DNA of 55,323 bases, filler included, from Sluysia triapertura (taxonomy: Eukaryota): the NCBI GenBank assembly GCA_046118255.1. It is 4 parts of 4 records of this genome, joined end to end, with 100 filler letters (N's around TTAATTAATTAA, not from the genome) between each part and the next. Parts side by side here need not be neighbours in the genome. Positions count along the whole stretch, not along the records: positions 1 to 18,069 come from JBJNIA010181915.1; positions 18,170 to 30,397 come from JBJNIA010127520.1; 2 more parts are not named here. The stretch is one strand, 5' to 3'. Below, in pieces: positions 5,029 through 54,464 of this stretch. Position 1 is the stretch's first letter. The number at the start of each line of letters is the position of its first letter. The notes under the pieces were generated by a model. It searched no databases. It had not been told where the DNA came from and saw only the letters and a program-made list of their open reading frames with translations. A program made the translations under genes and the position numbers.

Positions 5029-5029
<1 letters not shown>

Positions 5030-5082
<53 letters not shown>

Positions 5083-5083
5083 T
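5030..5083. repeat. (ATT)n microsatellite
   Basis: Direct reading. Confidence 0.9.
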
Positions 5084-5959: not shown

Positions 5960-6740
5960 TTATCTTAATATCATTTATTGAAACAGAAAATAGTTTATCG
6001 CACTTCTGCAGTTAGACCAGATGTTAAACATTTCATATCTTTTCATTGGCTCATAATAATGACTTGCAAACTTGTTGAAAAACTGTCAATTTCGATTCCA
6101 TTAACATCTGTTCATCTATATCTTCGGCAACAGCCCAAATTAAACTTTGTTGAAACTCTGCAAGACTTTTAAATGATTGTGGATCCCTACGCGGAAAGTA
6201 TGAAAGATGACAAAGATTTGCACTGGCTCCAACACCAGAAGCACCATCAATTTATCGAACTTCTCACAGCAAATATGATAAAAACGTGACAATGCACAAC
6301 ATCAGTACAACAAGTTGACAAAATAGCAGTAGAAGGTAAAATAACACGAGATTTTATAGAAATGATAAGTCGACTTGTAAAGATTTTCATTTATCATAAC
6401 TGTTTGCTGGAATATTACTTGTAAACCTGTTAATTAGTGGTAATGTACTTTCTACAGCATCTTCCAGATTTTGATTAAGTACTGTAATCGCGGGACAACA
6501 TTCCATGACAATTCGTCTTTTAAATAACCCTTAAATACCGCCCATGTATCTCGTATACAAGTTATAATCAAATGTCATACATCCCACATAACTCGTGTTG
6601 CGCTGAAACTAACCGCAAAACCAGTGCCGCTTCTCATCAAATATAAACAAGAGTATTTAAATAAGAAATTTGTTTTTATCCATTAGATCAGCCGCGACTT
6701 TCCCAGAGTTAAAATGATGTCTTTCAATTCCATTAAAACA
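5960..6740 (-). pseudogene. PITRM1: Presequence protease (pitrilysin M16C, PreP) C-terminal pseudogene fragment
   Basis: Minus strand 6250-6055 reads IDGASGVGASANLCHLSYFPRRDPQSFKSLAEFQQSLIWAVAEDIDEQMLMESKLTVFQQV, matching PreP KGGAYGGGA...FYSYRDP...FGKAVDWA...IDEAKLSVFSTVD. It continues KDMKCLTSGLTAEVR (cf. KGMDHFLYGLSDEMK). Stops and frameshifts throughout. Confidence 0.7.
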
Positions 6741-8089
6741 TTCATTAAAATTTTATGAAATATTTTAAATACATTTTTTATGCTTACACAAACTGCGCAT
6801 AACTTTTCAGTGCTATTTATTGACCAAATAAATATTTTTTGAAAATACCTTTCCCAAATGTATTTTGCGAACCTTTATATTTAATAGTTAGATTAACTAA
6901 TGATTGAGTGCTTTGTATTACATAAATTAATTTAAATCACACTCAGTTAATTTAATTATGATTCTGATATAAAGATTTATTAACATTGTTATTATGGATA
7001 TATTTACTGAAATTTTGATTATTTATCGCATTTTCAAAACGATAATGTTAGAAAATGAAATATAAAATTTAAACAAACATTAATTATAGAAAGTGGTAAC
7101 GATAGAAATGATTGTGTTTCGTTTAAAATTATTTTTTCACACGAAGTACATTTAAACGAAAATGTTTGACGACCAAGAAATAGATCTAAAATAAAAAAGT
7201 ATAAATTGTTTAATTTATAAAAATTTAACTTATTACAAATATATCATAACAAAACAATTGCAAACAAATTGTCATTCATAAAGATGACTTTTATAATTCT
7301 GAAACACTTCAGATGCTGAAACGATCAGAATTGTTTAACAATGACAACTTTATATTTCCACTTAATTTAAATGTGATTGGATAACTTCATTTAACCAAAC
7401 ACATAAAATATGTTCTGTAGTAAAAATAAAATAAAAATTTTAAATTGATATCCGTGCAATACATGTAAACTAAATAATAATAATGATAATAATAATATAT
7501 TTATAATAATAATATCCAACAGTTGTGATAATATCGATGATGGTAGTAATAATAATGTAGATTCAAATGTAGTTATAATATCTAGTATAGAAATAATGTT
7601 TATTATAGAATTATGGATAGAAACAAGATTAAAAGAACAAAATTAATTTAAATTTCAATCGGCATTTCTATCTCTCATATCAGAGACAAGCAGACTCCGA
7701 TTTTCAGATAAAGATTGTTTATATTATTACATAAAGTATCGCGAAAGTTTATAATAAATTGAATTAAGTTTGAGTAATTCTAAAAGAATAAAAGTAAAAA
7801 ATTGTATTACAAATAATTTGAAAGTGAATTAGAGTTATTACTTATAAGCATTACGAGTTCAAATTAAGAAAAGATAAGCAGGTAGCAGTTTCATAACGTA
7901 ACAGTAAGTTTTTATTTCTAGTTATTTGAAATTTGTCCATTTTGTATTAAGATTAGGTTTCTTTAAATATTTAGTGATGTGCTCCAAAGAGACATTAGGA
8001 TAAAATAAACATTTTGTAAAAATCATTTAAAAAAGGATTACTTCATGAATTATAATTATCGTGGATTTTGACACTGATCTGTTTACATG

Positions 8090-8260
8090 ATTTTTAGTGA
8101 TATCTTTAAGTTCAGAAATGCTCTCTACTTTATTGATATATACTTGACTTTTCAAATAGTCACAAAAGTCCGATGAAGTCCAATCACAAGATCTTGCTGC
8201 TCAATCCAATCATACCTCTATTCATAAATATAAGACATGCCTTCTTTGCGACATATTTTT
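8090..8260 (-). mobile_element. Tc1/mariner transposase C-terminal fragment
   Basis: AARSCDWTSSDFCDYLKSQVYINKVESISELK matches the WPARSPDLTPLDFFLWGYLKSKVY...IEELK motif. Confidence 0.65.
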
Positions 8261-10916
8261 AATCATATCATTATATCGTTCTGCATTATTGACGAAAACA
8301 TCTTTAAAGAAAGATACCAATAATTCCTTCATGTTGCAAGCCACACCAAGTACATATTTACTACTGAAGTTATTACTCATCAATAATTTGAGTGTTTTCT
8401 TTAACCTATATAGAGTAATTGTGATGGTTAACACAATTTTAACAAAGCAAACGATGTTTCTTTGATAGAGCTTCGATTGTAGGTAGTATGTTTTAGTTAT
8501 TTCTATACGTGGTTAGAACAGAAATTATACGGCAGGGAACAATATTTAAAAATGCAGAAAAAGCTATAATAAGACATAATATCATTATCTTCATAATACA
8601 ATATATTATTTTAAAGTACAAACTATTATTTTGAATATTTTAATAACTATATTATCGACACAGATCTTTTTTATTCATTTTGTTCGAATTATCAGTTTAT
8701 CTCAAGAAACAAATGATATATTTCAAATTTTATTATATTATGCAGTCTTAGATATTATAACATCAATTCAAGTAAATTAGAAGAGTTTAGTTAAATTTAG
8801 TTTCACTTAAAAGCAGTTTAAAAATTGTTGACTGCATTTTTACATAAAAATTGTTTTAGTACCTATAGTGACGAAGAGAAAGCAATTTAGTGAAGAAGTA
8901 CATAAAGAATTCTTGTTTATAGTGAGAAGGATATTCGCAAGTCAAAATTGCTAAAAAGATGAAGTATTTCTTTACGATTTTTTTTAAAATTTATTGTGTT
9001 ATAAAATGTGTTATATTTTTAATTAATATTTTTGGCCTGTGAAGGAAAGATTTTTAAGAAATAATTTTGTAAATAATTTATGCAATTACATTAAATAATT
9101 TATTGAAATATTTATGTGAATAATTTTTATTAAGTATTTAAGTTTATAATATTTTTATTTGTACAAAAAATAATTAATTGTTTCAATTTAATTAAATGTT
9201 TAAATTAACTATATATAGACTATAAATATAAACTATAAATAAACTATAAATAGACTTCGCTTACAATAAATTATTTTAATGTCATTTGACTTAGTGACAA
9301 TGTAATTATTGATTAACTTGTTCTAATTAAATTCTGCGTACAAATTAGGTTGGTTGACAACATAAATATTTGATTTTGATCAAGGAAAAACACTCGTTAG
9401 CTTTGTATAATACGTTTTTTAGCAATATTTATTTGCACAGTAAATTACTACGTAAAATACTAAATTTAATTATTTGATTATCGTTTAATGGGATAACATT
9501 TATTAAAATTAAATTTATAAAAGATTATTAAGAGAGAATAATTATAAAATAATTTATTTATATTATTTGATTTCTGTTGTAAAATTTTACTTCTCTTTTA
9601 TTATTAATGCATCTCTCCAATTATTCAGTTTTTGTATATATATTCAGTTTATATGTATTCAGTTTAATTTTTAGAACTTAATCATTGATAAAGCAACAAT
9701 TGATAATAGAAATTCAGACAAACTAAATTAAAATATTTTCGACGATTCTGTTTAATAAAGAATCATTAAAAACTATTACATTAATAAAATCCGTACGTAA
9801 AATAGAATTCTTAGAGGTTCTGTTTACCAAAGAACCTTAGAAAAATCTCATTATAGTCCGGTTCTATTTAACATAATCGTAATAAACTTTGTTATTAAAA
9901 GTTAAATTTCCTTTAAAAGCGAAAATTTACTGAAATAACCTTTTTAAATTTTTTTGTACAAGTGACCTTGAATTTTTTATTAAGTACAGAATTAAATGAA
10001 TCTTCACGTTTCACTTATGTAGTATTAAGACATAAATGGCAAAAACAAATTTAAATTAACATTCAGTACGTTTCACGGCCTACTCTTCTTTAAAATCGTA
10101 ACTCGTAAGACTATGATCATTGCTGGACTCGCTCAATATTAAGCATTTTATTGTTCACTTTACTCCATACAATATATCCACAAATTTATACCCTGATACA
10201 AACGTTTTGCATTATTGTCGTTAAAAAACTTAAATCCTAGAAACACTTCTAAATATAATGTAGTATTATGAAAATATATATTTTATTATTTTTGCACATA
10301 CTTATCAGAAAATATTCAATATGTTGAATTTTATTCTAAAGTTTTAATGACTCTGGTGAATTTTGTGAATTATCTTTACTCCAATATATTATAAAACTTG
10401 ATTAACCTTTAGTGTACGAATGTTAGACATATCCTACATTTAAATTAATGGTCAAAATAGACTATCTAACATTTATAAATTTTTTTATTAATCACTATAG
10501 TAATATTTTTATGAATAAAAAATCGTCCCGGACACAGTAGAATTGTTCATAAAAATGATTTAAAATGGGTTTATAGCACACTTTGCAGTTTTTATAAATT
10601 TGTATAATTAGAAAAATTTATCAAAATTTATATTTTTTAATTTCTATTTATACAAATTCTGTGTGCATAATTAATTTTGTACTTTTTCATTACAATTAAT
10701 ATAGAAATATATTACAATATGAAATGTTTTTCATTAACAGTTTTAATTTCTCATTTTGTTTCGTCCAAAATGAAGAAAATTTATTTTCTGAATATGTTGA
10801 ATTCCAGACTTATTTTAGACACGATAAATAAATAAACAAATATTTACACATTTAATTAATTACTGAAATAATCATAACAATAAAATATATAAATAAATAA
10901 TTATCAAAACACTTAC

Positions 10917-12599: not shown

Positions 12600-13256
12600 A
12601 AAAAACATCGCATCACTCCAGCTATTATTAAAGATTTTTATAAATGGAGTTGAAAATTTTGATATTCTTTCCTTAGTCATACACTTTATACTTTGCTTTA
12701 TTTTTTTGTTTTAAATTACGTTCTGCATATTTCCATAAAATTAGTTCAGCTAATAATTATAGATTTAAGTTAATCAATTACATTAGATAATACATTAATC
12801 CGTTTTTTTATTACTTTGTTTTGTAGAATATTCTTTAATTTGTCTCTTACAGTACGATCAAATCGTTCAACTAATGCTGCTTTGTACTGACTAATGATAA
12901 ATGTCATCTTCTCTAGTACTTTTTTAACATCTTTATTGTAAAACTCTTTACCTAAGTCAGTTTGAAAATGTATAAGTTTGTTGATTTTAATTAATGTCAA
13001 TACTGCGTCACTTGCACATTTATATTCTTTTACTTAACTGATACTGCTCTTGCAAATCTTGAAAACACATTAACACTATATAAAATATGCGTAACCGTTA
13101 TTAATTTTTGAATATGGAATCATTTTCATTAAATCATTTGGTGCTCCTGTTTTATATTTATATGATGACAACTGTTTTCTCAACTATTGCGTCTTTTGCT
13201 TGCTTTTCTAATCCTACATAACTAGATGGATCTTTTGGAATGAACCATATTTCCAT
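12600..13256 (-). pseudogene. Maverick c-integrase (rve), decayed
   Basis: DLMKMIPYSKINNGYAY..VNVFSRFARAVSVK; HFQTDLGKEFYNKDV; KAALVERFDRTVRDKL; KYKV.D..RISKFSTPF...SWSD. These are the successive Maverick integrase motifs. Confidence 0.85.
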
Positions 13257-13659
13257 CGAAATTGTATTCGTTTTTGATCTTCCATTAAAACAATCACAAT
13301 TTATACTTTAATTTTATATTAGGTAAAATAGATAATACTGAACCAATTTTTCACCATTTTGTTTATTACAACACGTGATGCCTAAATCCATTATTAGATA
13401 TTTTACCATTTTTAAATCAATAAGTGGATGTTTGACATCAATAATGTTCTTTAACTTTTACTTTACCAAAAGTTATATCAACTAAATGAAGGAAATGATT
13501 TAAGTCTAGGATATTTTTGTTTTTTCACTAATGCATTAAATAACACAGTAAACTACATCCATATTTCATCCTTTTGAATTGTTTAAAGGTTTTAGTGTAC
13601 TAGGTTAAAGCTAGCCTTAATTAATTAATATCTTATTTAGTACATTATTTATAGTGCAT

Positions 13660-14600
13660 TATGCCTTTTGAATTAAAAACATTAGTAGATGTACACATAT
13701 CACCAGGACATGCTTTTGTAATATCTAAAAACAGGTATCACTAAAGTATTTTTATTGCTTAAAAAGCATTTATTAAAAATAATTTGTTTTGCGTCCTTGA
13801 CATCCTAAATAATCTATTACAGTTTGATTTCTAGAATTTTTTAAAAATTACTAAATAATGTAGATTTAAACTTCGAGTTCGATGATTATTTCTTTAATGA
13901 AACAAATTTTGAGTAAAAATTAAGGTCACTACCCTATATCTAGCTAATTTAGTAATTTAATAGGGTTACCATTTTTTTCTCGCCAAACCGGGACGGTCAA
14001 ATTTTTTTCAACACCCCTCCCCCTTCCCCCTTCCCCCAAAAAATTTTTTTTGTGTTTTTCATTGTACATATATCATTAATTAATTACCTGTATACTAAAA
14101 AGTTCAAAGTTAGAGGCACACATATACGTATGCGTTTGAGTCATACAGTATGACGCATCAAATATGTTTTCAAAAGTTTTTTCGCAAGTTTATTGGCGCC
14201 GGATAAATATATTTTGAATCAGTTGAAGACATGGAAAAACCGAGACATTTTTAACAACCGGCCGGGACAAGTTCTTAAAACCTGGACGGTTGGAAACCCT
14301 ATAATTTAATAAAATCATCGTGTTTCTATAGTACGCTTGACCAATTTAAATCAAAACCTTTGATTGCTTTAATACTTTTTAATTTACAAAAAATCCACCC
14401 TGGTCCCAGTATATTTTATTAAAGTTATTGTGAAACTTATTATTTGTAGTAATTTATACATTAAATATATTTTATATATGAGATCCGTGTTACATTGTGT
14501 GTTTTAATTTTGAGATAACCACATAATTTAAGAGTAAAACTTCTTTTATCATAAATTTAGGTTAGTACCACATAACAAAAATTGTACTTCTATTTATCTT
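13660..14600 (-). pseudogene. Maverick packaging ATPase (A32-like), decayed, split by a hAT MITE
   Basis: KLARYRVVTLIFTQNLFH*RNNHRTRSLNLHYLVIFKN (13950-13840) and YLFLDITKACPGDMCTSTNVF (13736-13675) match ..SHHRNLSVIYIVQNLF..RTISLNAHYLVLFKNPRD..YLLIDL..RTNIF. Confidence 0.8.
13961..14301. mobile_element. Non-autonomous hAT (Blackjack-type) MITE, 341 bp
   Basis: TIRs TAGGGTTACCA / TGGAAACCCTA, internal CCGGGAC motifs, and a perfect 8-bp TSD TAATTTAA at 13953-13960 and 14302-14309. Confidence 0.9.
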
Positions 14601-14829
14601 TTACAATTATTATATTCATTAAAGTTTTTGTTATTTTACTAATTAAATTATGAAGATCAAACCCCATGGAATTTGTTTCAATGCAACATTGAATAATTGA
14701 CAAAGAATTATTGACTTGTTCTTGATTTTTCTTCATTAAACCGATGAACAAATTCTGCAATTCTAATACGAATTATAACATTGTAAGAAAATAAAAAGTA
14801 AATAAATTTACATTGTTGTTTGTTATCGT

Positions 14830-15280
14830 ACATCAAAATGAAATATATTCCTAAGGAAACAATAACTTCAACAATCAAACATTCATCTCAATACAATAGA
14901 TCTACCACCCAATTGTGTAGCCATATTGGAATAATTGAGTAAGAAAGATATTCTTATCTAACAGAAAATTATTTCTCTGACCTATTTTAGATTTGAAGCG
15001 TAAAGATTCTGTGCAATAATAAAATTTGTTTCGAGTTGTATCTATTTTCACTTGTGGTGTACGTATTTGCACAATTTTACACTAATTAGCAAATAAGTGG
15101 CATATTTTATCAAATGTTGTAGGTAAATTTAGAATTATAATAATAATTAAACATTCTAGGATCATTTTTCCGAAATTTGCGGCTAGACTAAATCATAAAA
15201 CTTTTATAAAGTGTAGAAATTTGCATACAAAAGCATGTTTCAACTATTCACACCTTTCTTTCAAAACGAAAATTCCATTT
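14830..15280 (-). pseudogene. Second A32-like ATPase remnant
   Basis: AANFGKM (degenerate Walker A, ~15182), TTFDKI, KYVHHK...FIIAQNLY (15070-15000), MATQL. Confidence 0.45.
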
Positions 15281-15877
15281 TCTTATATTCGACTAATATT
15301 TTATTTCATTATTATTACTAAAGAATTTCATTGGACATTATGTGAGTTAGTATGTCAAAGTTGTGTTTAAAATTAAAATTCAGATATTTTTATCAACATT
15401 TTTAGATAACCATAATAATTTAGATTTTTATAATCAATAAAAGCACACTGAATTAAAATGAAATTGGCATTCAAAATTTACAAATGCTTAAATGGTTTTG
15501 ATGTCACAAAATAATTTCCTGTTTTAGCTGGAAAAGCTATACTTATTCAACACGTTGTATTTTCAAGTGTCTTCTTTTGTGTATCATTATTTCGTTTGCG
15601 ATTTTTTAATTTTCGATAAGAATGGAAAAGTTAAATTTTTTCATTTTTATTTAATCTAAAGATAAATTTAATATTTTATGGATCTCTAATGAGTCATTTC
15701 AATTCATTATATAAAATTGCTATCATGGTTCAATTCATTCCGAGTAAGATAAACATTAGTCATTCATTCACTAAAGAATTGAATTTATAATAAAGTATTG
15801 AATAAATTAACTAAAATCATCATTGGTTCCAACAGAAAGTTTTACAGTAATAAAAGTAAATATAAATTAAATATTAC

Positions 15878-17560
15878 CTCGAGTAAAGTTGAAGTTTTTC
15901 ATCGAATTCATGCATAAGCCTTGTGATGGATTTTCATCAATTTCAAGCAATAAAACATATAATCGAAATCGCTCACAGTAATACAATGCTTGTAAGATGG
16001 AGTTTAGAAAACACTGAAATTATAAAAAATATTTATTGATTTTGAAATGTGAGACTATTCTTTAACTTTTAAATTACATATACAATGTAATATTATATCA
16101 AATCAACGTGACATAATAGAATTACTGATAAAATCAATTTTTTATTTGTTTTCACTCTTGAGATGACGAACATTATTTGAAAAATATCAATATGAACAAT
16201 AAATGTAGAATATTTAAATTACTCTTAATGTCGAGAGTATACAGACTACATGGAGAATTAACATGGGATGCTTCGGTTATAATGTCATTGCAAGAGTTTG
16301 GTGTTAAATCCATTCGTATTCAGCAAAGAGAAACTGACAATTAAGCACCAAGTTGATGGACACTTGGCTTCGTTTGAGGGAAGATGTCCATTCTCATACT
16401 ATATTCTCAGTAAACCAAATATATGTGGGTTCTCTGTGATTCTGAAAGATCATACTGATCATATAAAACAGATAAATTAGAAGCATAATACGCCTTTTGA
16501 TCATTATTTACTTAATAAAATTTTTCTTCTATATCTTTTTCTGAATGTTTGATTAAGCTATTTTCTTTTTTAAAGTTTTTCATAACTTACACTGCATCCC
16601 TTGATATTTGCTGTGCCAAAATAACGGAAAAAATAAGTTACATTAATTTAGCTCCTTTACAAAATCACGTCATGGAACTATTTATCAATGTTTTGGTCCA
16701 ATAAAGTCTTTTAGTACGAACAAAATAACTTATTTATAAAAATGGTTTCAGTAAATTCTCAAAAAATCAGATATTTTTAAATTGCAAATGAATATATTTT
16801 TGATATTGAAATATTGTATAATTGATTTTGATTAAATATAAAATTACATAAAATTTAACTAATTTAAGACTTAATAAATAATGTAAAAAATAGAAAGTTA
16901 CACAAATAAATTCAACTTACATATGTGTAAGGATTTGATAATCCAAGTGGGCGACTATTATCATCCTGTTGCTTATTTTCTGAGAAATTCTAATTCAGAA
17001 AATAATAAATTAATCCGATATTTAACAATTAATTTATATCAATAATTTATGTTACATTTTACATACAAAAACTATGTATTTTAATTATTTATTGAAATTA
17101 TTATATACACGTGGTGCGTGCAACAAAACATCGCAATGATAATTATTTTTATGCTTATAAGTATTAGAGTTAGTACATTTGTTCCAGCAAGTAACAATTC
17201 CATATATACTTTTCCATAAATATCCTACACTTATGGACAGCAAGCTTTAAATTTATTTTAGTTTGATCTCGAATAAACTTGTTGAGGTATATAAATATGA
17301 AATAGTCACTTACAACCGAGGCAGATAAATAAGGAAGGTGTGGAAAAACTTTGAAAACAGATTTGGCACTTGAAATAAAAATGAAATGATTTGTGCGTAT
17401 GAGTGCATGAAAGGTTTCAAATTCTATTTAAAAGTATACCTATTATTCGAAGTATTTAATTCACTACAAGGTTATCTAGTCGTTATTCTTCTGCGCCAAA
17501 TCAACTCGATTATCCGCTCTCCGTTGTCAAAATTCAAATAGTCTTGCAGGGATTTTTATC
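15878..17560 (-). pseudogene. Spliced ubiquitin-specific protease (ZnF-UBP + peptidase C19 Cys-box), probably decayed
   Basis: Exon 16989-16921 (..RPLGLSNPYTY, GTAAGT donor) splices in phase 0 to exon 16013-15878 (TTTCAG acceptor; CFLNSILQALYYCERFR), reconstituting the GLxNxxxxCxxNSxLQAL Cys-box. Upstream exon 17368-17314 reads CQICFQSFSTPSLFICLG (ZnF-UBP-like). Flanking exons contain stops. Confidence 0.75.
16220..16450 (+). mobile_element. piggyBac transposase fragment inside a USP intron
   Basis: MSLQEF..IR..RETDN*AP then VDGHLASFEGRCPFSYYILSKP..WVLCDSE (cf. [22 protein letters not shown]..WxLCDS). Confidence 0.75.
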
Positions 17561-17763
17561 AAGAACTGTTTTAATCAACAATTTCAGTAGTAAAATAAAC
17601 AATGATTTCTTCAAATATTTCTATATTATCGGATAAATTGTTCGCTAGTAAATTTATTATGCAAGTATTCTATTTCGTCATTCATAATTTTAAAAATACG
17701 AATACAAGTAAACAAACGACGTGGTTTATTATAAATATTTTATTTTATATATAGATAGTGGAC

Positions 17764-18047
17764 GAGGGAAGATCTCGTGTATTGGTTTACTCATTTATTC
17801 GCGCGCGCTTAATTTGAAAAATAGTTGTGCTGCATTGGTATCATATTAAATTTGGATTTGATGTTAATTAGTTTGTTTGTTTTTTATTAGATCGTTCTGA
17901 TAAGTTTAGTGTTTGTGCGCCTACAAACCTAACTAAATAAGAATAATTATAAAATAATAATAAAATAGTATATATCATATAATATGCACTAAACTGAGGT
18001 ATGTGAGCCATTTTTGTCTTAATATCAGTAATTCTGATAATAATACA
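17764..18047 (+). mobile_element. Putative PPT plus ~270-bp LTR
   Basis: GAGGGAAGA-TCTCG then TGTATT (17778) ... AATACA (18047), giving 6-bp inverted termini. The same junction motif occurs at 24512 and 51598. Confidence 0.5.
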
Positions 18048-18069
18048 GTAATATTGTAGACCAAATACT

Positions 18070-18169
18070 NNNNNNNNNNNNNNNNNNNNNNNNNNNNNNN
18101 NNNNNNNNNNNNNTTAATTAATTAANNNNNNNNNNNNNNNNNNNNNNNNNNNNNNNNNNNNNNNNNNNN
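18070..18169. other. Assembly gap with artificial TTAATTAATTAA linker
   Basis: N44 + 12-mer with stops in all six frames + N44; identical in all three gaps. Confidence 0.97.
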
Positions 18170-18219
18170 TAGTATATATATTGCATCTTAGTACATTAAT
18201 TTATTTTATTACCTTAATA

Positions 18220-18291
18220 CAGTGGTGTCAAAGTGGCGGCCCACGGAGGCAAATCATGCGGCCCGTAAAGCAAAAAAGTTTGACACCACTG
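18220..18291. mobile_element. 72-bp hAT (Charlie-like) MITE
   Basis: Perfect 13-bp TIR CAGTGGTGTCAAA / TTTGACACCACTG with two internal GCGGCCC motifs; TSD not well preserved. Confidence 0.75.
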
Positions 18292-19749
18292 CTTTATATC
18301 ATGGAAGTTGGTTATTTATTAAGACTTAAATCGTCATACTCAAATGATAAGTAGAACACCTAATTTATTAAAGTTCATTGAAAAAGTTTTAAAACTTTTT
18401 ATTATATATTTTGTGAGTCCTCTGTGATGTTGGTCTTACACAATTAAGTGCCAACTCATTGATGTCAGCATAAAGGATGAATAATGCAAGTTTGTGGAGG
18501 TCAAAGAATATCTTTTTATTGGATTATCTTTTCCGATATTAAGCGAGATTATTATTTGCTATTTTGTATCCGATCTGTTTTTATAAGGATCTTTTAAGCA
18601 AAATTTAAATTATTATATGTTTTATTATTATTTGTAAAAATTTAAATTTGTTTAAAACTACGTAATTTACTTTGTACATAAGATAAACAGTGCAACATGA
18701 TATGCACACATTTTTTCCAAGATTTGCGTCAAAAAATTATATACGTAAAATAAAATCGTAATTTATATTCACGTAACAAAAAATTTAATATACAATTAGG
18801 AATCATAAAATATATTCAATGGATAAAAGTTATAGTTTATGTTCAAATTACAGATAATAAAACTACGAGTTACATAAATTACACTTAAATTTATCAATAT
18901 TGCTATTTCGATATTTCTGTATAACTATGTTAATAACTATAATTTATTTATGTAATTAAATTTCTACTAAAAAAAGCCTTTTAAATGCTTGTTAAGTATC
19001 AAATTTAACTTTTTATTAAAATAAAAATTGCTTATAATAAATATCAACGAACTATCAATAAATATTTTCAAATTTCTGTGACAAATAGTATGTTCCAAAA
19101 ATTGATTGGTTAAAAATCTTTCTCAGGAATTAAATTATAAAATAAATATTTTCGAATATGTGACAACTTTTATAATCAAATTTGTTAAATCACTTTTTAA
19201 TTTGTATAACCTTTTTGTGTTAAACTTATTTTTTAGATGAATATTTATAGTCAAACTAGATGAATCATATTTAAGGTGATGAACTTGCATTATAATTTGA
19301 CTCATGCATTTATAAAATGACTACATAATACTAATTATATTCTAATTTTAAAGTACGCATAATTTGAATAATGATAAATAATAATAATAATAATACACTA
19401 TTTTCCTTGTATTTACTTATAAATTTTTAACAAATTATTACACAATTTATAACAATTGCATAATTTACAATAACTTCATTATAATTATTACAAGTATTAA
19501 ACATTTAATAACACATGTGAATTTAAGTATTGATAATTATAAAATAAAAACGAATGATTTTTATTGAGTCTGCTATTCCTATATTTAATTTTTCTTGGTT
19601 ACTTTTGAGGCAATGAACATTATTGGACCATTTCTTAAACTATTTGTTTTGCCTGATTTTATACATTCGGTTCTATTAAGTAGCCATCGTGGTTCTTCTA
19701 ATATAATATCATCATCATCTATTGGCCTATCAGCATAAGTATCCATCTA

Positions 19750-20103
19750 TCTTGATTTACTAAAATCGAGTGAAACTCCTTTTAGTTGTGAAAGTACGTC
19801 CGTACCTAATATCATATCTTCTGGGAATTTACTCATAACCCTGCATTTTATTTCGATTTTGTTTTGTCCAATCTCACATTATATTTTTAATACTCCTAAA
19901 ATTTCAATTTCGTCACCTTTTACTCCGGTAAGATATGAATTTTGTTTAGCTAAATTATTAAGTTCCTTTCTAGTTAATAATGATTCGCTTATTAATGATG
20001 CTACAACTCCAGTATTCACTAGTGCATATAACATTCTTCCGTTAACCCTCATATCTACCATGGGTATCCTTGCACTGTTATAGTTATTGTTTTCACATAT
20101 CAT
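19750..20103 (-). pseudogene. Retropepsin-type aspartic protease domain
   Basis: PMVDMRVNGRMLYALVNTGVVASLIS (DTG mutated to NTG), LTGVKGDEIEILG, and C-terminal MILGTDVL; one internal stop. Confidence 0.85.
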
Positions 20104-20219
20104 ATAAACTAAATTTCTTGAAGGAGGTTAGTATAGGATTTGTTTTTCTTATTCAGTATTACCAACTTATTCTATATTAACTGTTTGTAGAGCTATTTTT
20201 CTTCTTTTTTAAAGAATTT

Positions 20220-22035
20220 AATTGAGCATGAGCGTGATAATGTAATAAAATTTAGCTAAAAATGGGAAACAGCCAATTATTAATTTCCAAGTGAAGCCTA
20301 ATATTTTATAAATTCCTACTACAGAAAATATTTGAGATATTATTAGAGCAATGACTTTAATTATTACATATATGCCTGCTAGTCCTGAAAAATCTTGTCA
20401 TATTACTAAGAAATTTCCCCACATTTGTTTTAAAGTATTACGTGCCGCTTTCTTAACAAGATCAGGTCCTAATAATAATTCAAAATTCACTTTACCATCT
20501 TTTCTACTATTGTTTCATCAACTATTGTTTTATCATTGAGTAATTTTGATTTTTTAATATTTTGAATATTTGATTTGCTTGAATATTTTCTTTACAATAA
20601 ATGCCTGATCTTGGAATATTTAGCGTAGCTGAAAATTTTAATTTTGATTTTAATTCTGTTAAACCAATAGTTTCTGGAGTTTTAACTTGGATACGATATG
20701 GTAAAGATATCCATAAATTATCATCAATTTGATATTCTGGTGCCATTACATTAGAGCAGTGCAGTGTTTTCAGTTTGAATTTATTAGATGGAATAATTAT
20801 TCTTGTTACTGGTTCTAAATAAGTATTTTGATTTTTATACATTACAGGCAGTTAATTATTACATTCATTTTCTTGTCTGATTTGCGCTTCTACTTTTTTA
20901 CATTTATATGTATATAAAACCTCGCCTATTAAAATCTATCAAAGATTCCTTCTTCTAAAGGAAGTAATGATGCTACCAAATCTGGGTTTATTATTGCTAC
21001 TGCTAATTTAGTTCTCAGTATTTTTTTAATTTAATTGACAATCTCTAGCTATCATAGCTTGGTAAAATCTTTTTTGAGTGACAAATCCCAAATGATAATA
21101 GAAATCAATTTTATTGTTAAAATACTTATTTAATTTTAAATTTTTTTGTATCTATTCCTTTATTAGCTTGAAGTATTGTCTTTTCCGATAAATACATTCC
21201 TTGATAATTTGTCTGAATAATTTCTTATCCGCATCTGATGACCAACATTTCGATACAAATATTAGTCTACCTTCTTTATTTTGCATTAGGATTGTTGTAG
21301 TTTCTACTTCATTGAGTCTTTTTCTTTCTGGTGTATCTAAATTATCTTTATAAATTTGCTTTTTACTTATTTCCTCTACAGCTAAGTCATCTTCGTTTGA
21401 TACATAAATTAATATTAATATTAATACATATATTAATATAGATTCACCATTGTCACAACTTGTTTGATCACTTTTACAAAATTGTCTGGATATCATAGTA
21501 CCTTTTTCTAAGTTAAAACTTACATTAAATGATTTTAAACTTACTACATGGGTTTCATGCGCCACGACGTTATGATAAATTTTTCCTTCGTATTCTATTG
21601 AACCTCTTTCGCAAGTACCATCCATTAGTACATTACCAGCTGTTCTTACATTATAAATTATTTTCTCCTTGTTTTTAATTTTTAGTTTATCTCCTTTATT
21701 TAAACGTATTTATCTAGTTTCGAAGGCATTACGACAACTGTTAAGCGATATCTGGAATGGTTTCAACACATTTGATATATCTATGGTGTTCACAATACCA
21801 AATAACTACAGATCTTTTAACCAAGCATTTTTTAACCAGTGTCGTAACTAGATTCCCTTCTTGGTAAACATTTGGTGCTTTCACATTTGGACCCTATTTG
21901 GTCTTGATTATGGACAATCTTCGATATCCAATAAGAAAATTTTCTTCAGACTTGGGTTTGGATACAGTCAAAAGCCCTTATAGCATTGGTTTTATGAATT
22001 CCAAATAATACCAGTAAAACTATTATAGATAACAT
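20220..22035 (-). pseudogene. Chuvirus/Monjiviricetes-like fusion glycoprotein (env), decayed
   Basis: Signal peptide MLSIIVLLVLFGIHKTNA, then in the expected order: IRAFDC..LLDIEDCP, IWYCEHH, TAGNVLMDGTC, NVVA, GEVLYTYKC..RQENEC..LPV..YLEPVTRII, SGIY, and membrane region MWGNFLVI..FSGLAGIYVIIKVI..YKILGFTWKL. Confidence 0.75.
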
Positions 22036-22135
22036 ATTATTTATTGAAGTTTCAAATTATGGAAATGATTCACTTGAATTTCTCTTATTATTAATTAATT
22101 TTCGGTATCATATTAAGCGGTTCGTTTAAGGTATT

Positions 22136-22534
22136 CTAATATTCTTTTCCTTTAATAATATTCTTCCATCGACCTTGTTCATTTATCCAAGTATTAATTT
22201 TCTTATCAACGAAATTTATATTTCGATCTATTTTTTCACTGGTTATTAATACAGTTTTATTGCATTGAAATATTACGTACGCCATTATAATTTTATGACT
22301 TTTTCTATTAATTCCTGCATTAATTTGTTTGTTAATGATATTTTTGTATTGACTGTTATCTATATATTCGCCTATATCCACATCTTTATATTTTTCTTCC
22401 ATCGTTTTAATTATCTTAGTTAATATACTTTTATACTCTTTTAGTTCAGGAAATAATGTCTTATATTTGTTGAAATTAGAAAACGTATTAGATAATAAAG
22501 AATAAAATATATTTTTAGTTTTGTAGTGGTTCAC
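22136..22534 (-). CDS. Unknown 132-aa ORF immediately upstream of the glycoprotein
   Basis: Open frame, co-oriented with and ~100 bp before the env ATG; no recognisable motif; the ORF-track start is GTG. Confidence 0.3.
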   Translation of the reverse strand: MNHYKTKNIFYSLLSNTFSNFNKYKTLFPELKEYKSILTKIIKTMEEKYKDVDIGEYIDNSQYKNIINKQINAGINRKSHKIIMAYVIFQCNKTVLITSEKIDRNINFVDKKINTWINEQGRWKNIIKGKEY

Positions 22535-23679
22535 CTAATAATTCAAAATTTAATATTACCAAGTTATCTATCTACATAAAACAAAATTAATCATTTAAAC
22601 AATTGTTACATTAAATAACAATTAATGAAATGTTCAACACGCACACACACTAAATATGCATTTTATTCTGTCGTGTTTGAATTATGTCTGATGTTTCTTT
22701 TCATATAATTTTAACTTCTTACACTTTCTGAAGTAATAAGATGTGATATAATTGTGTCTTTGAAAGCACGTATGAATATGTTGTAGAAAAATATTGCATT
22801 GGTAAGAAATTATTTTTTCTACTTGGCTCGTTCATATATACAATATTATATACAATATTACAATATTACATTACATAATATTATAAATTATCGAATGTGT
22901 TATCAAAAATGCTACCTTTTACAAGCGCTTCTGCGCTTGAAAACAATAAGCATTATATTAAATAAGAAAACAATGCCACTGTGAGCACAATTTGAAACAT
23001 TCGATAAAATTTGTTTAAATTTACACTCAGTCGTAACAGTCTTGTGGTCCTGGAGCTAACAACAATGCAGTACTTCATTTACACTAAAGTATGTTAAATT
23101 AAACAATACTTGTAAACTCTGTAGTTTCACATTCTTAAGGTATTGAATCTTGTATGAAGCAGTTGCAAAAAAAGTACAAAGGGTTTATTTCCATTATGTC
23201 CATAATTAAAGTCGAATGGCAATAGAAATGGTGCCACCTTTACATATCTATTTTTATTTATTATTATTTCAGTTATTATTGTACTACTATATCGTACTTA
23301 TCCAACTTGTCGGTCTGATGAAGTTGAAGACTCATCACAAAGAGAAAGTTCATAAATCAAAAACTGCTCATCAAAAATAATTCATTGGAAATTTTTTTAC
23401 AAATGTATTTAATTTAGAAATTTATTTTTAAAATTGTTTAAAAAGTTTCACAAAATTTTTAATTGTGTTTTGTATCGATTCAATTATTTTTCATTAAGCT
23501 ACGTTACATGTTACAATGATGTTTTGAGTATTTACATGAAATTTTTTAAGGCTGAAAGATTATTTAATTCGTATAGAGTTTACATTCAAAGAGTTATTGA
23601 TTAAAAAATTAAATTACTTAAAAGGTTTGTAGTAGCCATTTTATTTAATGACTTCCAAAACAAGCAGTACATCAAATCA

Positions 23680-23940
23680 GAATCTACAAAAGACAGTTTC
23701 TAATTTCATCTCAACAGTTATCACGTCTTCATGTTAATAGATTGTTCGTTAAGAGAATTCAAGAAACATTTTTGGTTTTTTAATCATTAATGTATACAAT
23801 GATATCGATATTAAAATTCGTAATGGACTACCTTTTACTTTTTTTGTATTTGATGATAAACATGATGCTGAAAATGCTGTATGTGATCGTTATGGTTATG
23901 ATTTAGATGTATTTTCTCTACGAGTTGAATTTCCTCTAGA
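23680..23940 (+). pseudogene. SRSF1/9-like RRM1 fragment
   Basis: 23801-23938 reads [46 protein letters not shown] vs SRSF1 [47 protein letters not shown]. Confidence 0.85.
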
Positions 23941-24511
23941 TTTGATCACGATTCAGATAACAGATGTAGTATTAATATTAGTAATAGCGACCATTTAGTA
24001 CCATACGAAATCATTTAGATACTACCTATCCGATGGTATTTGTTACAATGATTATCGTAATATGGCTCGTTTTCATAATTATAATAACATTAATTCCAGC
24101 AATCAACATATTCATGATTCTATTCGTCATGTATTATCAACATATTCAGCTTTACTCGGCACGTCAAACATTGTTCATAAACATGAAAATTGACCAAATT
24201 TTGTCATTAGGAAGCTATTTTATACTCTTGATTTTTGTTCTGAAATTTTTATAACTCAATGTTTTGTTGTATATAATAAATTACCTAAAATTTATTGTGT
24301 TATTTATTAGTTTAATTTTGATAAAGTAAAGATCCTTAAGACCTATTTTTATATTAAAGAATCGAGTAATTTTGTAATTAAATTATCAAAAAATAAAAAT
24401 TTTATTAACTTGTAATGAAAATTATATGAATAAACATTGTTTTAATTTTAATAAACAATATTTTTTAACACAAACATTTCAACTTTATATACCAAAGATA
24501 CTATGTATTCC

Positions 24512-24856
24512 AAAAGGGAGATCTCAATGTTACATTAAATGATGTGAACACAAATGTAATTGATGGAGTAAGATGGCGTTGATTTATAAGTCTTGAATTT
24601 GTATGTAATTATACTCTCAGGTCATCGACATTAAAGACTATATGTGCGTGACAGGTATTTTATACTACAGTTTTGTGATATTCAACAACACAACAAGTCA
24701 CTGGAAGCATGTTTGGTACATAAGGAACATTTCTTGGTGACTGTAAATATCATATTTTTGTGTTGTTTTTATACTTTTGTGTTTTTTATAATAAAAGGTT
24801 CAATTTCATTTTTAAATTCTTTTGTGTTATATTAATTAAAAATCTAGTTAATAACC
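24512..24856 (+). mobile_element. Putative PPT plus ~330-bp 3' LTR
   Basis: AAAAGGGAGA-TCTCAA-TGTTAC (TG at 24528), AATAAA at ~24790, possible end ..TAACC at 24856. Confidence 0.45.
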
Positions 24857-25028
24857 TTAAGTTAATGTTTATTCAAATCAAACTAAAGTTCAAGAGAAAA
24901 TTTCTTAAGAAGTTAATAAAAGGTAAACTTTTTAATTTATATTCTAATACGCCCTCGCCAAAGTGATCAATCAATAATTTATTGCCAAAAAATTATATAT
25001 AAAATTTAGTAATTATAAAATATTAAAA

Positions 25029-25797
25029 TGCTGTGGTTTTCTAAATTTCTAACCTACAACAAAATCAAATTGAACTGTGTCCGGTTTCAGTAATCGTCTT
25101 ACATTGTAAATAGGGCGTTTCTGTAACTAGATCTAAGCTAAACTTAATGTAAAATTTATTGTCTTGGAGGGTCTTGCGCTTAATAACTTATTCTTTTAAT
25201 TTACAGTTAATCCAATCCTTGCCTTTTTATCTTTGTTACTCTAAAGTTGATTTTATTAAATTATATCAACAAATAAAACAATTAAAAACTTTATTGAAAA
25301 CTATAGTTAAGTGAATAAATAAATTGGTATTTTAAAACTTCCCCTCATTAGATCGGGGTAATGAAACTATTAAAACGAAATTTAAGTAGATTTTAATATT
25401 TCATTTGCGAGATCGAAACTCCTTAAATTAATAAACCTTACTAAATCAATGGAGTTCGCCTGAATTTTCTTAAATCTCTACTAAAAATGAGCTATCTAAA
25501 TCTACTAAAAATCCAAACTATGACCAATATTGCAAAGTTATATTGGCGACTGAAAAGATGGCGTAACAAAGTAGCTGCAAAATGATTATTAAAATCCAAT
25601 ATGGCTGACCACAAATGGCGATTTTCACTAAACTGATGCTAGTTTATATACAAGTCATCAGCCAATAGGAATCGAGGAATGTTTTAGAACATTCTAGAAG
25701 CTTCTATTCTATTTTTGGAAGCGAATTTTCTTTTTGAAAAATTTCTTTGGAAAATAAGATTTTTAAATGATATAGAGAGTTGTGATAACAATCTACA
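25029..25797 (-). mobile_element. LTR-like repeat copy 1 (HSE-bearing)
   Basis: TG...CA ends. Shares TGCTGTGGTTTTCT, TTCCCCTCATTAGATCGGGG, CTGATGCTAGTTTATATAC.AGTCATCAGCCAATAG and TTGTGAT..CAA.CTA with 27350-28150. Confidence 0.7.
25643..25705 (-). promoter_or_regulatory. Heat-shock promoter module (HSE array, CCAAT, TATA)
   Basis: gGAAt gTTTt aGAAc aTTCt aGAAg cTTCt (25676-25705), CCAAT at 25662, TATATAAA on the minus strand at 25650-25643. Confidence 0.75.
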
Positions 25798-27349
25798 AAA
25801 ATATTAAATTTTGTTTTTTTAGTAGAATAACTTAAGTGTAGCAAGCCAATTTTTAAAGTAATTTATTTTGATAATTTCTTAAAAACTTTATTTATTGCCA
25901 TTTTATTTTTAATTCCATAAAATGCGAAAGACGAAAGATGTCATTAAATCGATATTTACATGGGAATTTAAAATTCCAAAAGTAGTGATGCGGTTCTCGA
26001 AATCAAGAAAACCTGGTGACATTGTGGTGTCCAACTTCCCACAAAATTTTAATATATCACAATACACTAAAAATCATATTTTTTACAGCACTTAAACCAT
26101 TCATTACATCAGAAATCATTAAATTTGTATTTTAAATTTAAAAATAACCATAAACTATATGAAATTTCTTTTAACACCTTTAACATTGTTAATACTCTCT
26201 ATTACACTCCTTTATAATTTTTCTGTATCTTTTTAACAATAATCAGAAGGAAAACTGAGTGAATTCAAATGCCTTTTAGTAAAAGTGAGTTGAACATGTA
26301 GTAAAAGAACCAGCATTAGAACAACTCTTTGAACGAGAATTAGATAATAAGTCTCACGAAGACAATGAAGGAGAACTTTCACAAGATATGGGAATATTAA
26401 AATAATTAAGTTAAACTTACAATTCAACAATGTAATACCAACTTTAATATCATCAGAATTTCTTAGAACGTATTCATTGTTCTCGGAAAGTAATGATCAA
26501 ATTATTAAGATGGATGAAAAAGCCATTATTCCTGCGGAATGTTTAAAATTGTATAAAAAAGAACTAAGTGATACTAAGATTACCATTTTCTATCATTCAC
26601 TTAATACAAAATCTGTCGGAGATTTGGAGACAGAAGAAATTCCAAGTTAAAGATTTAGATCAAGAGAGTCAAGAAAGTTTAATAATGAATTTGATATCTC
26701 AGTCATTTCTTACAGCATTAAATAGATAGTCCGAGTATGAATTGTGCAAGCACTCTCTGGATCTTAATCCTTACCTTATTAATACAACGTTCAGTGTAAA
26801 TGATATCTTAGACATTAATTCTAATTTTGTTAATAGTTTCGATATTAATTGTTATTCAACCATTGTTACTAATTGTTTTCGTATTTTTAGATATATTAAG
26901 TATCCGTCATAATCGATTAGTAATGTGTTATTTGATCATTACAGTTATCATTATTGATAATAAAAAGCATAAATTCTGTACTGACAATAATCCATTTATT
27001 GATGTCATCAATCATTATATTAATGATAATCAAATACATGATTTAAAACTATACTTTAAAAATAAATTAATTATTAGTTATAATTACAATCGCCGTAATG
27101 TCTTATAACTAAAGATCAATTTGTCCATGCAGTAACAATCTTGATAAATTTCTTTGTTACTAAACTAAAGGTTAAATACATCATCTCATTAACTTATCAA
27201 CAATTCAAAATTCATAATGTTCGTTCAACGACACAAACATAAACTACAAATATCGAAGTAGTAAAATCTACATGAGTAATTATATAATTAACAACTCATT
27301 TCAACTCAATACTATGATTCATACCTCAACATTTCATGAACTATTCTAT

Positions 27350-28150
27350 TGCTGTGGTTTTCTTATGAATTAAACCGGCAAAATAAAATTGAGCAGGGTC
27401 CGGCTACAGTAAGTGTCTTACAACTAATAGTTGGCGTCTCTGTAGCTTGTAGTATAATCTAGTATCTCAAAAACCTTATTAACTAATGGTAACATCGAAA
27501 TATCCAACAAAAATAACAAAAAATGTGAATGTATATTATTAAAATTTTATATTAAATACAGATTATAAAAAGAAAAAATAATTGAATTTAAAATTGAAAC
27601 CTTTGAGGGTCTTCAATTTACTGATTAAAATTTATAATTTATAAGTTCCCCTCATTAGATCGGGGCGGTAAAATCCTTAAAAAATGAAAATTAAGTATAT
27701 TTTACGTTTTAATTAAAAATTAAAACAGACTTATAATTAATAAAACTTACCAATACAGAACTTAATTCCTAAATTAAACAATATTGTTTTGTGTCCGTTA
27801 CTGTCTTCGCTAATTGTCCAAAATGCTGAGATAATTGTGATGAATAAATCACGTGCCAAATAATTTGTATCAAATAAATAACATCAAATAAATTGTGTCA
27901 ACTAAATTGTGAAAACTATTGAGCTGATGCTAGTTTATATACTAGTCATCAGCCAATAGAAATCGATAGAATGTTCTATAACATTCTATAACATTATAGA
28001 AGCTTCTATTCTATTTTTAGAAGCTTATTTTCTTTTTTGGAAAATAAATGTCTTATAGTCGTTTAAAGGTTTTTAAATATTTCTTAAGTAATTTTTAAAA
28101 TTTTTAATGATAGTTTAGACATTTTAAAGGGTTGTGATGGCAACCTAACA
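27350..28150 (-). mobile_element. LTR-like repeat copy 2 (HSE-bearing)
   Basis: Diverged direct repeat of 25029-25797 with TG...CA ends. Confidence 0.7.
27934..28007 (-). promoter_or_regulatory. Heat-shock promoter module (HSE array, CCAAT, TATA)
   Basis: Eight in-register pentamers at 27968-28007 (five perfect nGAAn/nTTCn), CCAAT at 27953, TATATAAA on the minus strand. Confidence 0.7.
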
Positions 28151-50849: not shown

Positions 50850-51598
50850 AGATGTAATTGTGATTCTAATGTTATAAGACAATGAGAAAAAGCCTTCAAT
50901 GAAAGTTTAAATATAAATTGGTGGTTTTGAATGTCATTATGGTTTGGATGTTGTAAGCATATGGATTAAAATGTTCTGATGGGTTTAGATGCATCTGCAG
51001 TTCTGATGTTATGAATTATAGGTAAAAATGTTTTAAATAAAATTTAAAATGCGTTAATGGTTTGGAATAAAGAAGTGATTTTAAGATTGTAACTTAAAAT
51101 GTATTAAAATGAGAATAGTTCTAGTGGATGTGATGCAATAAAGTATGATGCATTGTATAATGTTAATTGATATAATTATTATTGTGATGTTATGGAATTG
51201 TGAGTAGAGAATATATTGAAGTATAAAATGGTTTTAGTGGATCTGAAAGAAATACAAAATGAAAAGGGTTCTGATAGAAAAATAGGTGAAATGTTAATGA
51301 ATGTACGATATGTTGAATTCATTTGAAATGTTTCGATTAATTTTTTAAGGTAATCTTTGATTATTTCTGATGCTGAGTATGATCTTGATGCTCTGACATT
51401 TTATGTCTAAAGTATATGCAAGTATTAAGAATTGTAAAATGTTCTGGAGTGATTTTGTTATGTCGTGATAAAATAGAATTTTTAAAAGTGGTATGTTGGC
51501 CACCACAATTGTCATGATTTTTAATTCTATTCTTGTTTTTATTGGCAACCAATGTAATTATTTAAGATAAGGTATTACATGAGATCTTCTTCCCCCTT
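50850..51598 (-). mobile_element. Putative PPT plus LTR start (minus strand); left boundary uncertain
   Basis: Minus strand reads CCAAGGGGAAGAAGATCTCA-TGTAATA (TG at 51579), followed by ~0.7 kb of strongly strand-asymmetric sequence. Confidence 0.45.
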
Positions 51599-54464
51599 GG
51601 AGAATTAGTTTTGCTGCTTGATTAATTATTAATTGTAATTTTTTTTACATGAAATGGAGTACAATAAACTATTGTTAAAATATATGTTATTATTTATCAA
51701 TGAATGAACAATATTCATTAATTGTTTATTCTTTATTTACAAATTTTAGAAAAATTCATATTTTTATTAATTCATATTTACACTTTCTAATAATAAAATA
51801 TTTTAACTAAATTACTAAGTACTACATTTCGCAAATCAGTTATACTTAGTTTTGAAACTTGTCGTAAATATTCACAAACAAAATTATTAAAGATATTAAT
51901 CAAATATTTTATTTAAAAATATGAACTGTTTTTTATTTAAATCGCGCACTTTATTAATTTATATAGCAAGTTTAATTTTATAGCAAATTAAACAAAATTA
52001 TAAATAAAATAAAACTAATAATCTGAGTAATTTAAAAAAATTAGAATAAAAATATTAATAAAAAAAATAAAAATAGAATATATAGGAGATAGAATGGATA
52101 ATAGAATCGAATGAAACTCACCGAATTTAATTAGCAAATGGAATTAAATAAAATTAAAATGAAAAATGAATACTAGGAATCACAAACTAGTACTAAATTG
52201 CGGCCAAATCAATGTAATAAAATAAATAAATTAAAATATTTAATATATTTATCACTGTAATAAATATACTAAATATACTAATAAATCATTTATACGTTTT
52301 TAATTGGTCATGAAATAAAACTTTAGTGTAAGAAGAAACTAGCCATAATTAGCCACAGGTGGACAATAAGAGATAAAATTGCGTTTTCTAGAGATATTAT
52401 CGGAAATATTATTAATTTCACAATTATAGAAATTTGAATTTGAATTAACAATCAAATTTAAATTATATTAAAATTCTAGACAAAAATGTACTTTTAATTA
52501 GTCGTGGTACATTTTGTTATGCAGTATATTTATATTAATATATGATTTGTTAAGAAATACATTAGTGCATTAAGCCTTTAATTTATTACTGATTAAAGTG
52601 ATACAAAATTCGGAAGTATAAAGAAATAATTAATAATGTTAATAAAAACAAGTAACGCAATTGATTAAATTTATAAAAAAAGAAAATCTTTGGTACATAT
52701 TTAAAGCTAAATGTTTTTGTTAACAATAATTCGATTCTAGTAAAACTGCAGTTTAATAATAGTCGAAAATAAATAATTTTGCTAAAGCTAATAAATATAA
52801 AACTTTAAAAACAAAAATACAAAATATTTTAACGTAAAGTAATTAAAATAATAAATTATAAAATTGTTATTGCAGATTATTCAAAAAATACACTGAATAT
52901 TATTAATAATTAATATTAATTATTAAAAAAATGTTATAAAATCTATATTCCCAATCCATTTAATATTATTAATAATAAATAATAATCTCACATTTTATAA
53001 ATAAATGGTAGATCATTTAATTCTTCATTAAATATTGCATAAAATATAATCTAAAAATTATTTTATTTATTAAAATTAAGATAAAATTAAAAATAAAATT
53101 TCTAAAATAAATTCATTGGATTTAAATTAATTAAATAATATACAAATGTTATAAATAATTATATTACTTATAATATTATTACTTATAATTGTATTAACAC
53201 TAATATCTACTATATAATAACTTTTCAAATGTGCTTAAAATAAATCATTCATTATAATATTTCTGAAATAAAAGAACTGCTTTTTCTTAAATATTTCATA
53301 ACCTTCCAGTAATTAACTTAACTCTTGCGAAATCTGCTATCATAAAGACTCTCATTGTGGTTTTTCAATTTTTATTATTTCCAATAGATATTTAGGACTT
53401 CAATATTTAGGATTTAAAAATTTATGTCAATTTTTTATTGGACTCTTGATTTTAATGATAACATATGCACTTTTTTAAAAGAGGGTGTTATACTGTGAGA
53501 AAAGTAAAGCAAATAGAATAAAAACTTATCTTAAAGTGAGCTCACCAACGTACTGGGCTTACCAGTTAGGGCAAGCCATTGGATATTATAAATCAAGATA
53601 AGTCTCAAAAATATTCTAATAGAGCCTTAATGCTTAATCCTATCTGGAGGTAAACTTTGTTAATGTATATTGTAGTGCTAAGATCCTCTAATAATTGTCA
53701 AATTGAGGTTTTTTCTTATCAAAAATATAAGTAAATTTGAAAGTTTTGCGTCGTAATATTTAAAAGAATTTCTAGAAAACTTTGATTCTTAAAATATAAA
53801 TGAAAATTGAAATTTATTTAGTAATTTTACGTAGATTCCGATATAACAGTTTAAATATTCATTGTTTAATTTCAATAATAACAATGTTTCATTTTCAGTA
53901 AAGATATTTTTAGGAAATAATTTACCAAAGTATCCAATGATTGTAAAGTTTGTTTGCAAGACATATGTAAGCTATTAGGATACACAGTGTGAATTTTTAA
54001 TATTCTATCTAAAAGCCATCTACTTAAAACCTTGCTTAGTATATAAAATTTAACCTTTACTAATCATTGTTCTCGTTATTCTTTTTTTATTATCAGTTGT
54101 TTCAAATCCTTTTTTCGATCACTTACCGATTTATGAATATATTGGAAGTTTTGACAAAAAATATTTATTTTATTTTCAGCAAATCGAAAACTTTTATTTC
54201 TTTTTATATTTATTTCTATAAAAGTAATTAATTTTTCTTTTATACATTTTCAATTTTTTTTATTTCGTGTTTTCTTTAGTAAAGTTATTAACTAAATAAG
54301 TAGTAAATTTAAATAATCTTTTTTTAATCTGTTGATTTTTTCATGAAAATTTTTTTCTTTTTCAATCTTTATCTAATATTATTATTATTATTTAGATACG
54401 TAAATTTAAATAATTTTAACTACATAACTTAAATTAAAACAATAAATTAGTTTTTTCTTTCCAG

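Follow-up and report, generated by a model that had tools for sequence, protein, structure and literature searches.

The window examined here is a 55,323-nucleotide stretch of DNA from Sluysia triapertura (GCA_046118255.1), made of four parts joined end to end, with a G+C content of 24%. A ryanodine receptor exon in it shows that the host is an animal, and a flatworm is plausible by analogy with the retroelement described here. The segment of the window at 19563–22534 is most probably a dead piece from the interior of a Burro-type Ty3/Gypsy retrotransposon, truncated at both ends; the element is presumably high-copy. In this reading, to which we assign a probability of roughly 0.8, the nearby host-gene remnants would be separate debris and a motif that recurs in the window would be coincidental. 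An initial annotation had proposed a family of large long terminal repeat (LTR) retroelements carrying host-derived genes next to the 3' LTR.

The envelope-protease fragment and its relatives

A Pfam scan of the window placed a Monjiviricetes fusion glycoprotein (Env) and a retroviral protease (PR) on the minus strand (Table 1), as the initial annotation had reported. Env matched PF24664 in two frames (E 8e-32 and 8e-9) and was recovered in several pieces by tblastn with related proteins as queries (E 1e-52 to 2e-75). Its main frame comprises 426 codons and contains 8 stops. A word-index search with the Env protein found no relatives. The protease matched gag-asp_proteas (E 3e-7) and RVP (E 6e-5) and aligns to the proteases of two related proteins, P0153 and P0156. 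Further segments of these two proteins (P0156 1419–1569 and P0153 2185–2345) align as far as 19612. The window is collinear with the relatives' polyproteins over 22495–19612 and matches them nowhere else.

Table 1. Coordinates of the features discussed in the text.
Feature	Position	Strand	Remarks
Putative BCL2-like domain (BH1-BH2 region) of retroelement polyprotein	22136..22534	-	132-codon open stretch; similarity to relatives starts here
Chuvirus-type (Monjiviricetes) fusion glycoprotein, signal-peptide-like stretch to transmembrane region	20248..22035	-	Broken by stops and frameshifts
Retroviral-type aspartic protease	19780..20076	-	Directly after Env; frame with a stop, catalytic aspartate gone
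Start of the region downstream of the pol protease in relatives	19563..19779	-	Copy ends here, before reverse transcriptase
Motif site 1 and ~110-bp short dispersed repeat behind it	17765..17895	+	Possible mobile-element end or promoter-region repeat
Motif site 2	24515..24530	+	No look-alike behind it within the window
Repeat with motif site 3 (51577–51587) in its interior	51511..51630	-	Second copy at 47449–47570
SRSF1-like RRM1, decayed	23789..23938	+	Lies 1.2 kb upstream of the retroelement piece, in antisense orientation
5' fragment of USP deubiquitinase pseudogene	15450..17684	-	Introns kept; Cys-box split by an intron; first exon with stops and frameshifts
Gap	18070..18169	.	Two blocks of 44 N around a palindromic 12-base spacer; gaps at 30398 and 42804 have the same layout

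Just upstream of Env, an open reading frame (ORF) aligns to segments of four relatives, with an E value of 1e-5 against P0040 residues 636–749 and weak matches to P0003 and P0006. A profile of five BCL2-like segments matched Bcl-xL over BH1-BH2, and P0006 itself has a Pfam Bcl-2 match (E 1e-3). The AlphaFold model of this ORF was poor (pLDDT 54). A Foldseek search with it returned nothing at E 0.001, though the weak rows include many Bcl-2 proteins.

The frame that once joined the BCL2-like domain, Env and PR is now interrupted by stops and shifts, while order and strand are kept. Domain searches and searches with the relatives detected no gag, reverse transcriptase (RT), RNase H or gypsy integrase in the window, in agreement with the earlier remark that no gag-pol is visible. 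The absence of gag and of the RT-RNase H-integrase block probably reflects truncation of the copy. A run search listed one run, X1, sharing half of the query words, and no RNA run. At the lower cut, the match of two X1 contigs to the window ends at 19563, beyond which they carry other sequence. Between 19658 and 22239, 36–100 distinct contigs of the same run were mapped at 12 of 16 listed positions, contig depth in this run not being equivalent to copy number. The mapping showed 40 of about 1740 difference rows and did not cover the USP-bearing part.

A search of 1.84 billion representative proteins gave 430 matches, 150 of which were listed, and 17 of these 150, picked mainly by length, were scanned for domains. 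The best relatives among the matches listed are mostly polyproteins of 1250–2855 aa with ~30% identity. A protease follows Env in 11 of the 17 scanned proteins, RT and RNase H lie further along in five, and three have a gag domain or CCHC knuckle upstream of Env. The cluster members P0153 (4844 aa) and P0156 (3003 aa) read Env-PR-RT-RNase H-integrase, P0153 with ankyrin repeats in addition. The relatives' Pfam set of RT_RNaseH and Integrase_H2C2 is one that we take to be Gypsy-like. A locus search recovered at least one metagenome locus, L001 (12.9 kb), which ends before any LTR pair could show; no related locus was found in viral_contigs or genome_contigs. A 3426-codon frame of L001 encodes Env, proteases, RT, RNase H and integrase and is followed by a sense-strand exonuclease ORF. 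Burro presumably has such a downstream exonuclease ORF as well.

A tree was built from 38 Env rows, with P0014, P0030 and P0039 omitted. The window Env belongs there to an 11-row group (95/96), in which eight rows carry a fusion with PR or pol. This group is separate from the free-standing glycoproteins of 540–860 aa.

Side features of the relatives were also seen. Several aspartic protease domains occur in one polyprotein in P0153 and L001, with up to four Pfam aspartic protease stretches in P0153. P0153 and the L001 frame (2–10282) have long C-terminal tails with hydrophobic, membrane-anchor-like ends. The gag-env-pol polyprotein P0007 (HBK71150.1) is filed under a Flavobacteriaceae metagenome-assembled genome and is probably eukaryotic contamination.

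The identity, order and strand of the domains in the window are clear, and the relatives have the same order. Judged from sequence, the BCL2-Env-PR run is the sense-strand core of a minus-strand element's gag-env-pol polyprotein and not 3' cargo. The initial annotation had treated Env-PR as an antisense accessory cassette beside a 3' LTR, a description that falls since in the relatives it forms the sense core of gag-env-pol polyproteins. With Env-PR as the core of an element on the minus strand, a polypurine tract and 3' LTR on the plus strand at 24515 would have to belong to an element of the other orientation and cannot mark the 3' end of this one. The broader idea that a virus-like giant LTR element left its trace here is retained, the element being Burro-like and equipped with a fusogen; what had to be changed is the orientation and role of Env-PR, which would be the element's own core.

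Intact relatives have one long ORF for gag, accessory domains (ubiquitin-like and BCL2-like), a chuvirus-type fusogen, at least one aspartic protease, RT, RNase H and integrase. As LTR retroelements are understood, the polyprotein would be cut by its own protease, Env would allow particles to move from cell to cell, and the BCL2-like domain may dampen apoptosis of the host cell. The window copy performs none of these steps because of its stops and frameshifts, its dead protease and its lack of gag and RT.

The fragment resembles the Burro/GYPSM1 giant Gypsy elements. In planarian Burro, BCL2, Env and PR lie in frame between gag and pol, Env is related to mononegavirus fusion glycoproteins, and decaying fragments with stops and frameshifts have been reported in one planarian genome (PMC6431247). 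However, only 3 kb survives here of an element type expected to exceed 30 kb in total, with long paired LTRs; gag, MATH, BIR, RT, integrase and LTR are missing, and the comparison with Burro is by description. The excerpted text of PMC13524379 describes GAG-ENV-POL Ty3/gypsy 'errantiviruses' with an HSV/gB-type Env in Platyhelminthes, Nematoda and Bryozoa, and six Schmidtea GAG-ENV-POL elements with 1–215 intact copies each. These likewise have Env ahead of pol and a gB-like, chuvirus-related fusogen, whereas the window copy is not intact and, lacking RT, has no placement on an RT tree.

Other known elements are more distant. Anakin is a BEL/Pao element of mosquitoes, whereas the relatives found here fuse Env upstream of the protease and have a domain set that is presumably Gypsy-like. 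The likeness is that the same glycoprotein family was captured by an LTR retrotransposon (excerpts of PMC10084718 and PMC12440569). Ogre of plants is also a large Gypsy element with extra ORFs, but its size comes mostly from long LTRs, and an in-frame Env is not described in the passage on it (PMC6431247). Troyka elements were rejected as a match, none encoding an envelope according to the excerpt of PMC12440569.

As found, the fragment has little import, being one more decayed Burro-type fragment. The gag-env-pol polyproteins with BCL2-like, Env and multiple protease domains, up to 4844 aa long and unannotated in public assemblies, may be useful for mapping the host range of such elements.

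The junction motif

The initial annotation had also described a junction recurring at 17765, 24515 and 51596. A pattern search of the window for GGGA(N)GATCTC-N1-2-TGT matched at 17766 and 24516 only. The site near 51596 has the core AGATCTC-N-TGT alone, and the recurrence thus stands for the first two sites in full and for the third in its core. The core has 3 matches compared to a shuffle mean of 0.10, and none of 100 shuffles reached 3. This significance is not upheld because the pattern was chosen afterwards: the number of equally rare patterns of the same shape that occur at three or more dispersed places is 42 in the window and 28–53 in 15 Markov-simulated windows. GC-rich 13-letter patterns like the full motif were found at two dispersed places 0–7 times per simulated window (n = 20).

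An LTR junction is expected to lead into the same LTR at each site. Local alignment within the window found no shared LTR-like sequence downstream of the three sites. The best local scores between their flanks were 18–47, compared to shuffle maxima of 29–52; four of the six comparisons were at shuffle level and two were marginal (2–3 of 200 shuffles). The three-site motif is most probably a coincidence. It is not supported as the signature of an element family that it was proposed to be, with unshared flanks, recurrence at chance level and a second copy of the site-3 repeat that lacks it.

Each site was also considered individually. In the case of site 1, a look-alike of the sequence behind it was found at 770–880 on the minus strand (blastn E 2e-7), with a local score of 84 versus 51 for the next best among 728 tiles. 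The two copies, 17782–17895 (+) and 770–880 (-), each start at a purine tract, and the latter lacks GATCTC-N-TGT. No Pfam family was found beside the look-alike, at 900–2150. In the case of site 2, the best tile score was 61 versus 59 and 55 among 542 tiles. The sequence behind it, 24893–25606, is covered by a single 714-bp contig of run X1 with one difference, which fits with the absence of a high-copy LTR, although low contig cover is not evidence. In the case of site 3, the two copies of the repeat are 71% alike over 122 bp. We take its translation to resemble the C-terminal end of an L2/CR1-type long interspersed nuclear element (LINE) ORF2. The peptide had no relatives in protein or atlas searches to confirm this, and a literature search for the LINE peptide motif gave nothing relevant.

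Six other sites in the window combine a purine run with TGT. The motif was rejected as a tRNA primer site, since no site starts with TGG; the excerpt of PMC13524379 gives a flatworm primer site containing the same six letters as the motif. No tRNA or Rfam matches were found in the window.

Host-gene remnants and alternative origins

The sense SRSF1-like RRM of the initial annotation is present, with an E value of 3e-10 to the SRSF1 structure 1x4a in a PDB search. This remnant and its downstream part (23474–24450) lie under 8–22 distinct contigs of run X1 at five listed positions in 23738–24171 and are therefore probably repeated sequence, which suggests an amplified pseudogene family. Between the RRM and the BCL2-like domain, at 22747–23233, only 1–4 contigs were mapped at the listed positions, with low summed depth. 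This would fit with the absence of a linked cassette, with the same reservation that low contig cover is not evidence. A second SRSF1-like copy was suspected by eye in a decayed, RS-rich frame at 1–560 (+) and was dropped when searches gave no support.

The antisense, intron-containing USP remnant was likewise confirmed, through a weak UCH match (E 0.007–0.014, below the Pfam cut-off) and two GT..AG introns read from the sequence, at 16920–16014 and 15877–15528. No His-box was found downstream, and 14300–15530 gave no UCH match. The best PDB rows were USP46/12 (E 0.07–0.2) and USP35 (E 0.66); assignment to the USP35/38 subfamily is our guess. The probable start codon lies ~80 bp from the motif, and not ~200 bp as had been stated for the 5' end. 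The pseudogene adjoins a Polinton-type integrase remnant, and a gap separates it from Env-PR, as was originally pointed out. An intron-bearing USP would most simply have arisen by DNA-level duplication, compared to packaging as an antisense transcript.

The CCCH finger of the initial annotation is reduced to a sub-threshold Pfam match (E 0.03). It belongs to a region at 49390–50192 (-), in which a 225-codon open frame (49515–50192) precedes a stop and then the match. The 225-aa ORF had no relatives in the searches run. No match was found between the USP, RRM or CCCH pieces of the window and L001 or any retrieved relative protein. The USP and SRSF1 remnants are probably debris of host genes, separate from the element. 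The region around them is rich in repeats, among them the Polinton integrase remnant, miniature inverted-repeat transposable elements (MITEs) and the LINE-like piece.

Several points weigh against a dead Burro-type fragment surrounded by unrelated debris. No LTR, gag or RT is present, and the size and superfamily of the element are deduced from relatives at ~30% identity. The BCL2 assignment is modest, with a profile E value of 6e-4 and a fold search that was not significant. The window Env forms a long branch of unusual composition in the tree. The look-alike of site 1 at 770–880, the one result that favours the initial annotation, is unexplained, as is the repeated RRM, and the LINE reading of site 3 is tentative. 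Furthermore, the search in which UCH, RRM and CCCH domains were absent from all 21 relative proteins and all three L001 ORFs covered polyproteins and one 12.9-kb locus, with the accessory ORFs of 6–31 kb contigs outside the comparison.

It is unlikely that non-autonomous LTR derivatives, mobilised by Burro-type elements, capture and amplify host regulators (USP with its introns, the SRSF1 RRM) beside their LTR end. In such a scheme the repeat at 17782–17895 and 770–880 would represent the LTR end, and repetition of the RRM would reflect its amplification as cargo. If true, enveloped giant retroelements would capture and move regulatory genes of their animal hosts, extending the ubiquitin- and apoptosis-related accessory domains that Burro is reported to have (PMC6431247). 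These accessory domains favour the surviving form of the initial model, an LTR family, possibly non-autonomous, with USP and SRSF1 RRM fragments, in sense or antisense orientation, beside a polypurine tract and LTR, as do the purine runs followed by TGT at sites 1 and 2, the recurrence at 770–880 together with its purine tract, and the contigs over the RRM. However, the three sites have no extended common flank, the 770–880 copy has neither the motif nor a Pfam family beside it, six further sites of the same form exist in the window, Env-PR is on the wrong strand for the layout, and the cargo domains are absent from the relatives examined. This surviving form is quite unlikely. A literature search, which covered few subscription journals, found no report of USP or SRSF1 in planarian elements.

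Two other origins can be weighed against the same evidence. The fragment could be an internally deleted Burro derivative with the RRM in a long accessory region upstream of the polyprotein, travelling with Env-PR. Burro-like elements have been described with accessory ORFs in that position (PMC6431247), the RRM looks repeated, and the contig with the BCL2-like domain carries it 1.2 kb upstream of that domain. This origin is very improbable: the stretch from the RRM to the BCL2-like domain lacks gag and the 1000 or more residues found ahead of BCL2 in relatives such as P0040 and P0014, and the RRM runs antisense to the element and was detected in no relative examined. An endogenised chuvirus glycoprotein gene lying beside a protease remnant by chance is scarcely credible. 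The Pfam family is that of a viral glycoprotein, and Gypsy fragments often lie beside insertions of this kind according to the excerpt of PMC10084718. Nevertheless, the run from the BCL2-like domain through Env to PR aligns collinearly with single polyproteins, which largely refutes this origin, and the tree sets the window Env apart from the free-standing glycoproteins.

Other features of the window

A decayed integrase of Polinton/Maverick type lies at 12770–13800 (-), with one relative in viral_contigs (L002). The E value against the Polinton-like contig was 4e-13, compared to 0.011 against the gypsy integrase of L001, and the part at 12770–13300 was rejected as the missing pol of the element on this basis. 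The L002 relative adjoins ORFs that resemble a packaging ATPase and a minor capsid protein, both named by eye. Nearby, at 13961–14300, is a 340-bp stretch with short inverted ends that we assume to be hAT-like.

Repeats were found on the far side of the first gap as well. At 18220–18292 lies a MITE-like element of 73 bp, bounded by terminal inverted repeats, in a bin whose summed contig depth is very high. Another repeat is present in two diverged copies, at 25015–25770 and 27336–28121, which have the top contig depth of the stretch mapped to run X1 and include a GC hairpin.

Coding traces were also seen outside the main features. A decayed region at 5900–6600 (-) gave a weak match to PreP_C (presequence protease; E 0.024), and 26812–27108 (+) matched DUF7428 at an E value of 6e-5, below the cut-off. 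An intact-looking exon of a ryanodine receptor is present at 54451–54714 (+; E 5e-21).

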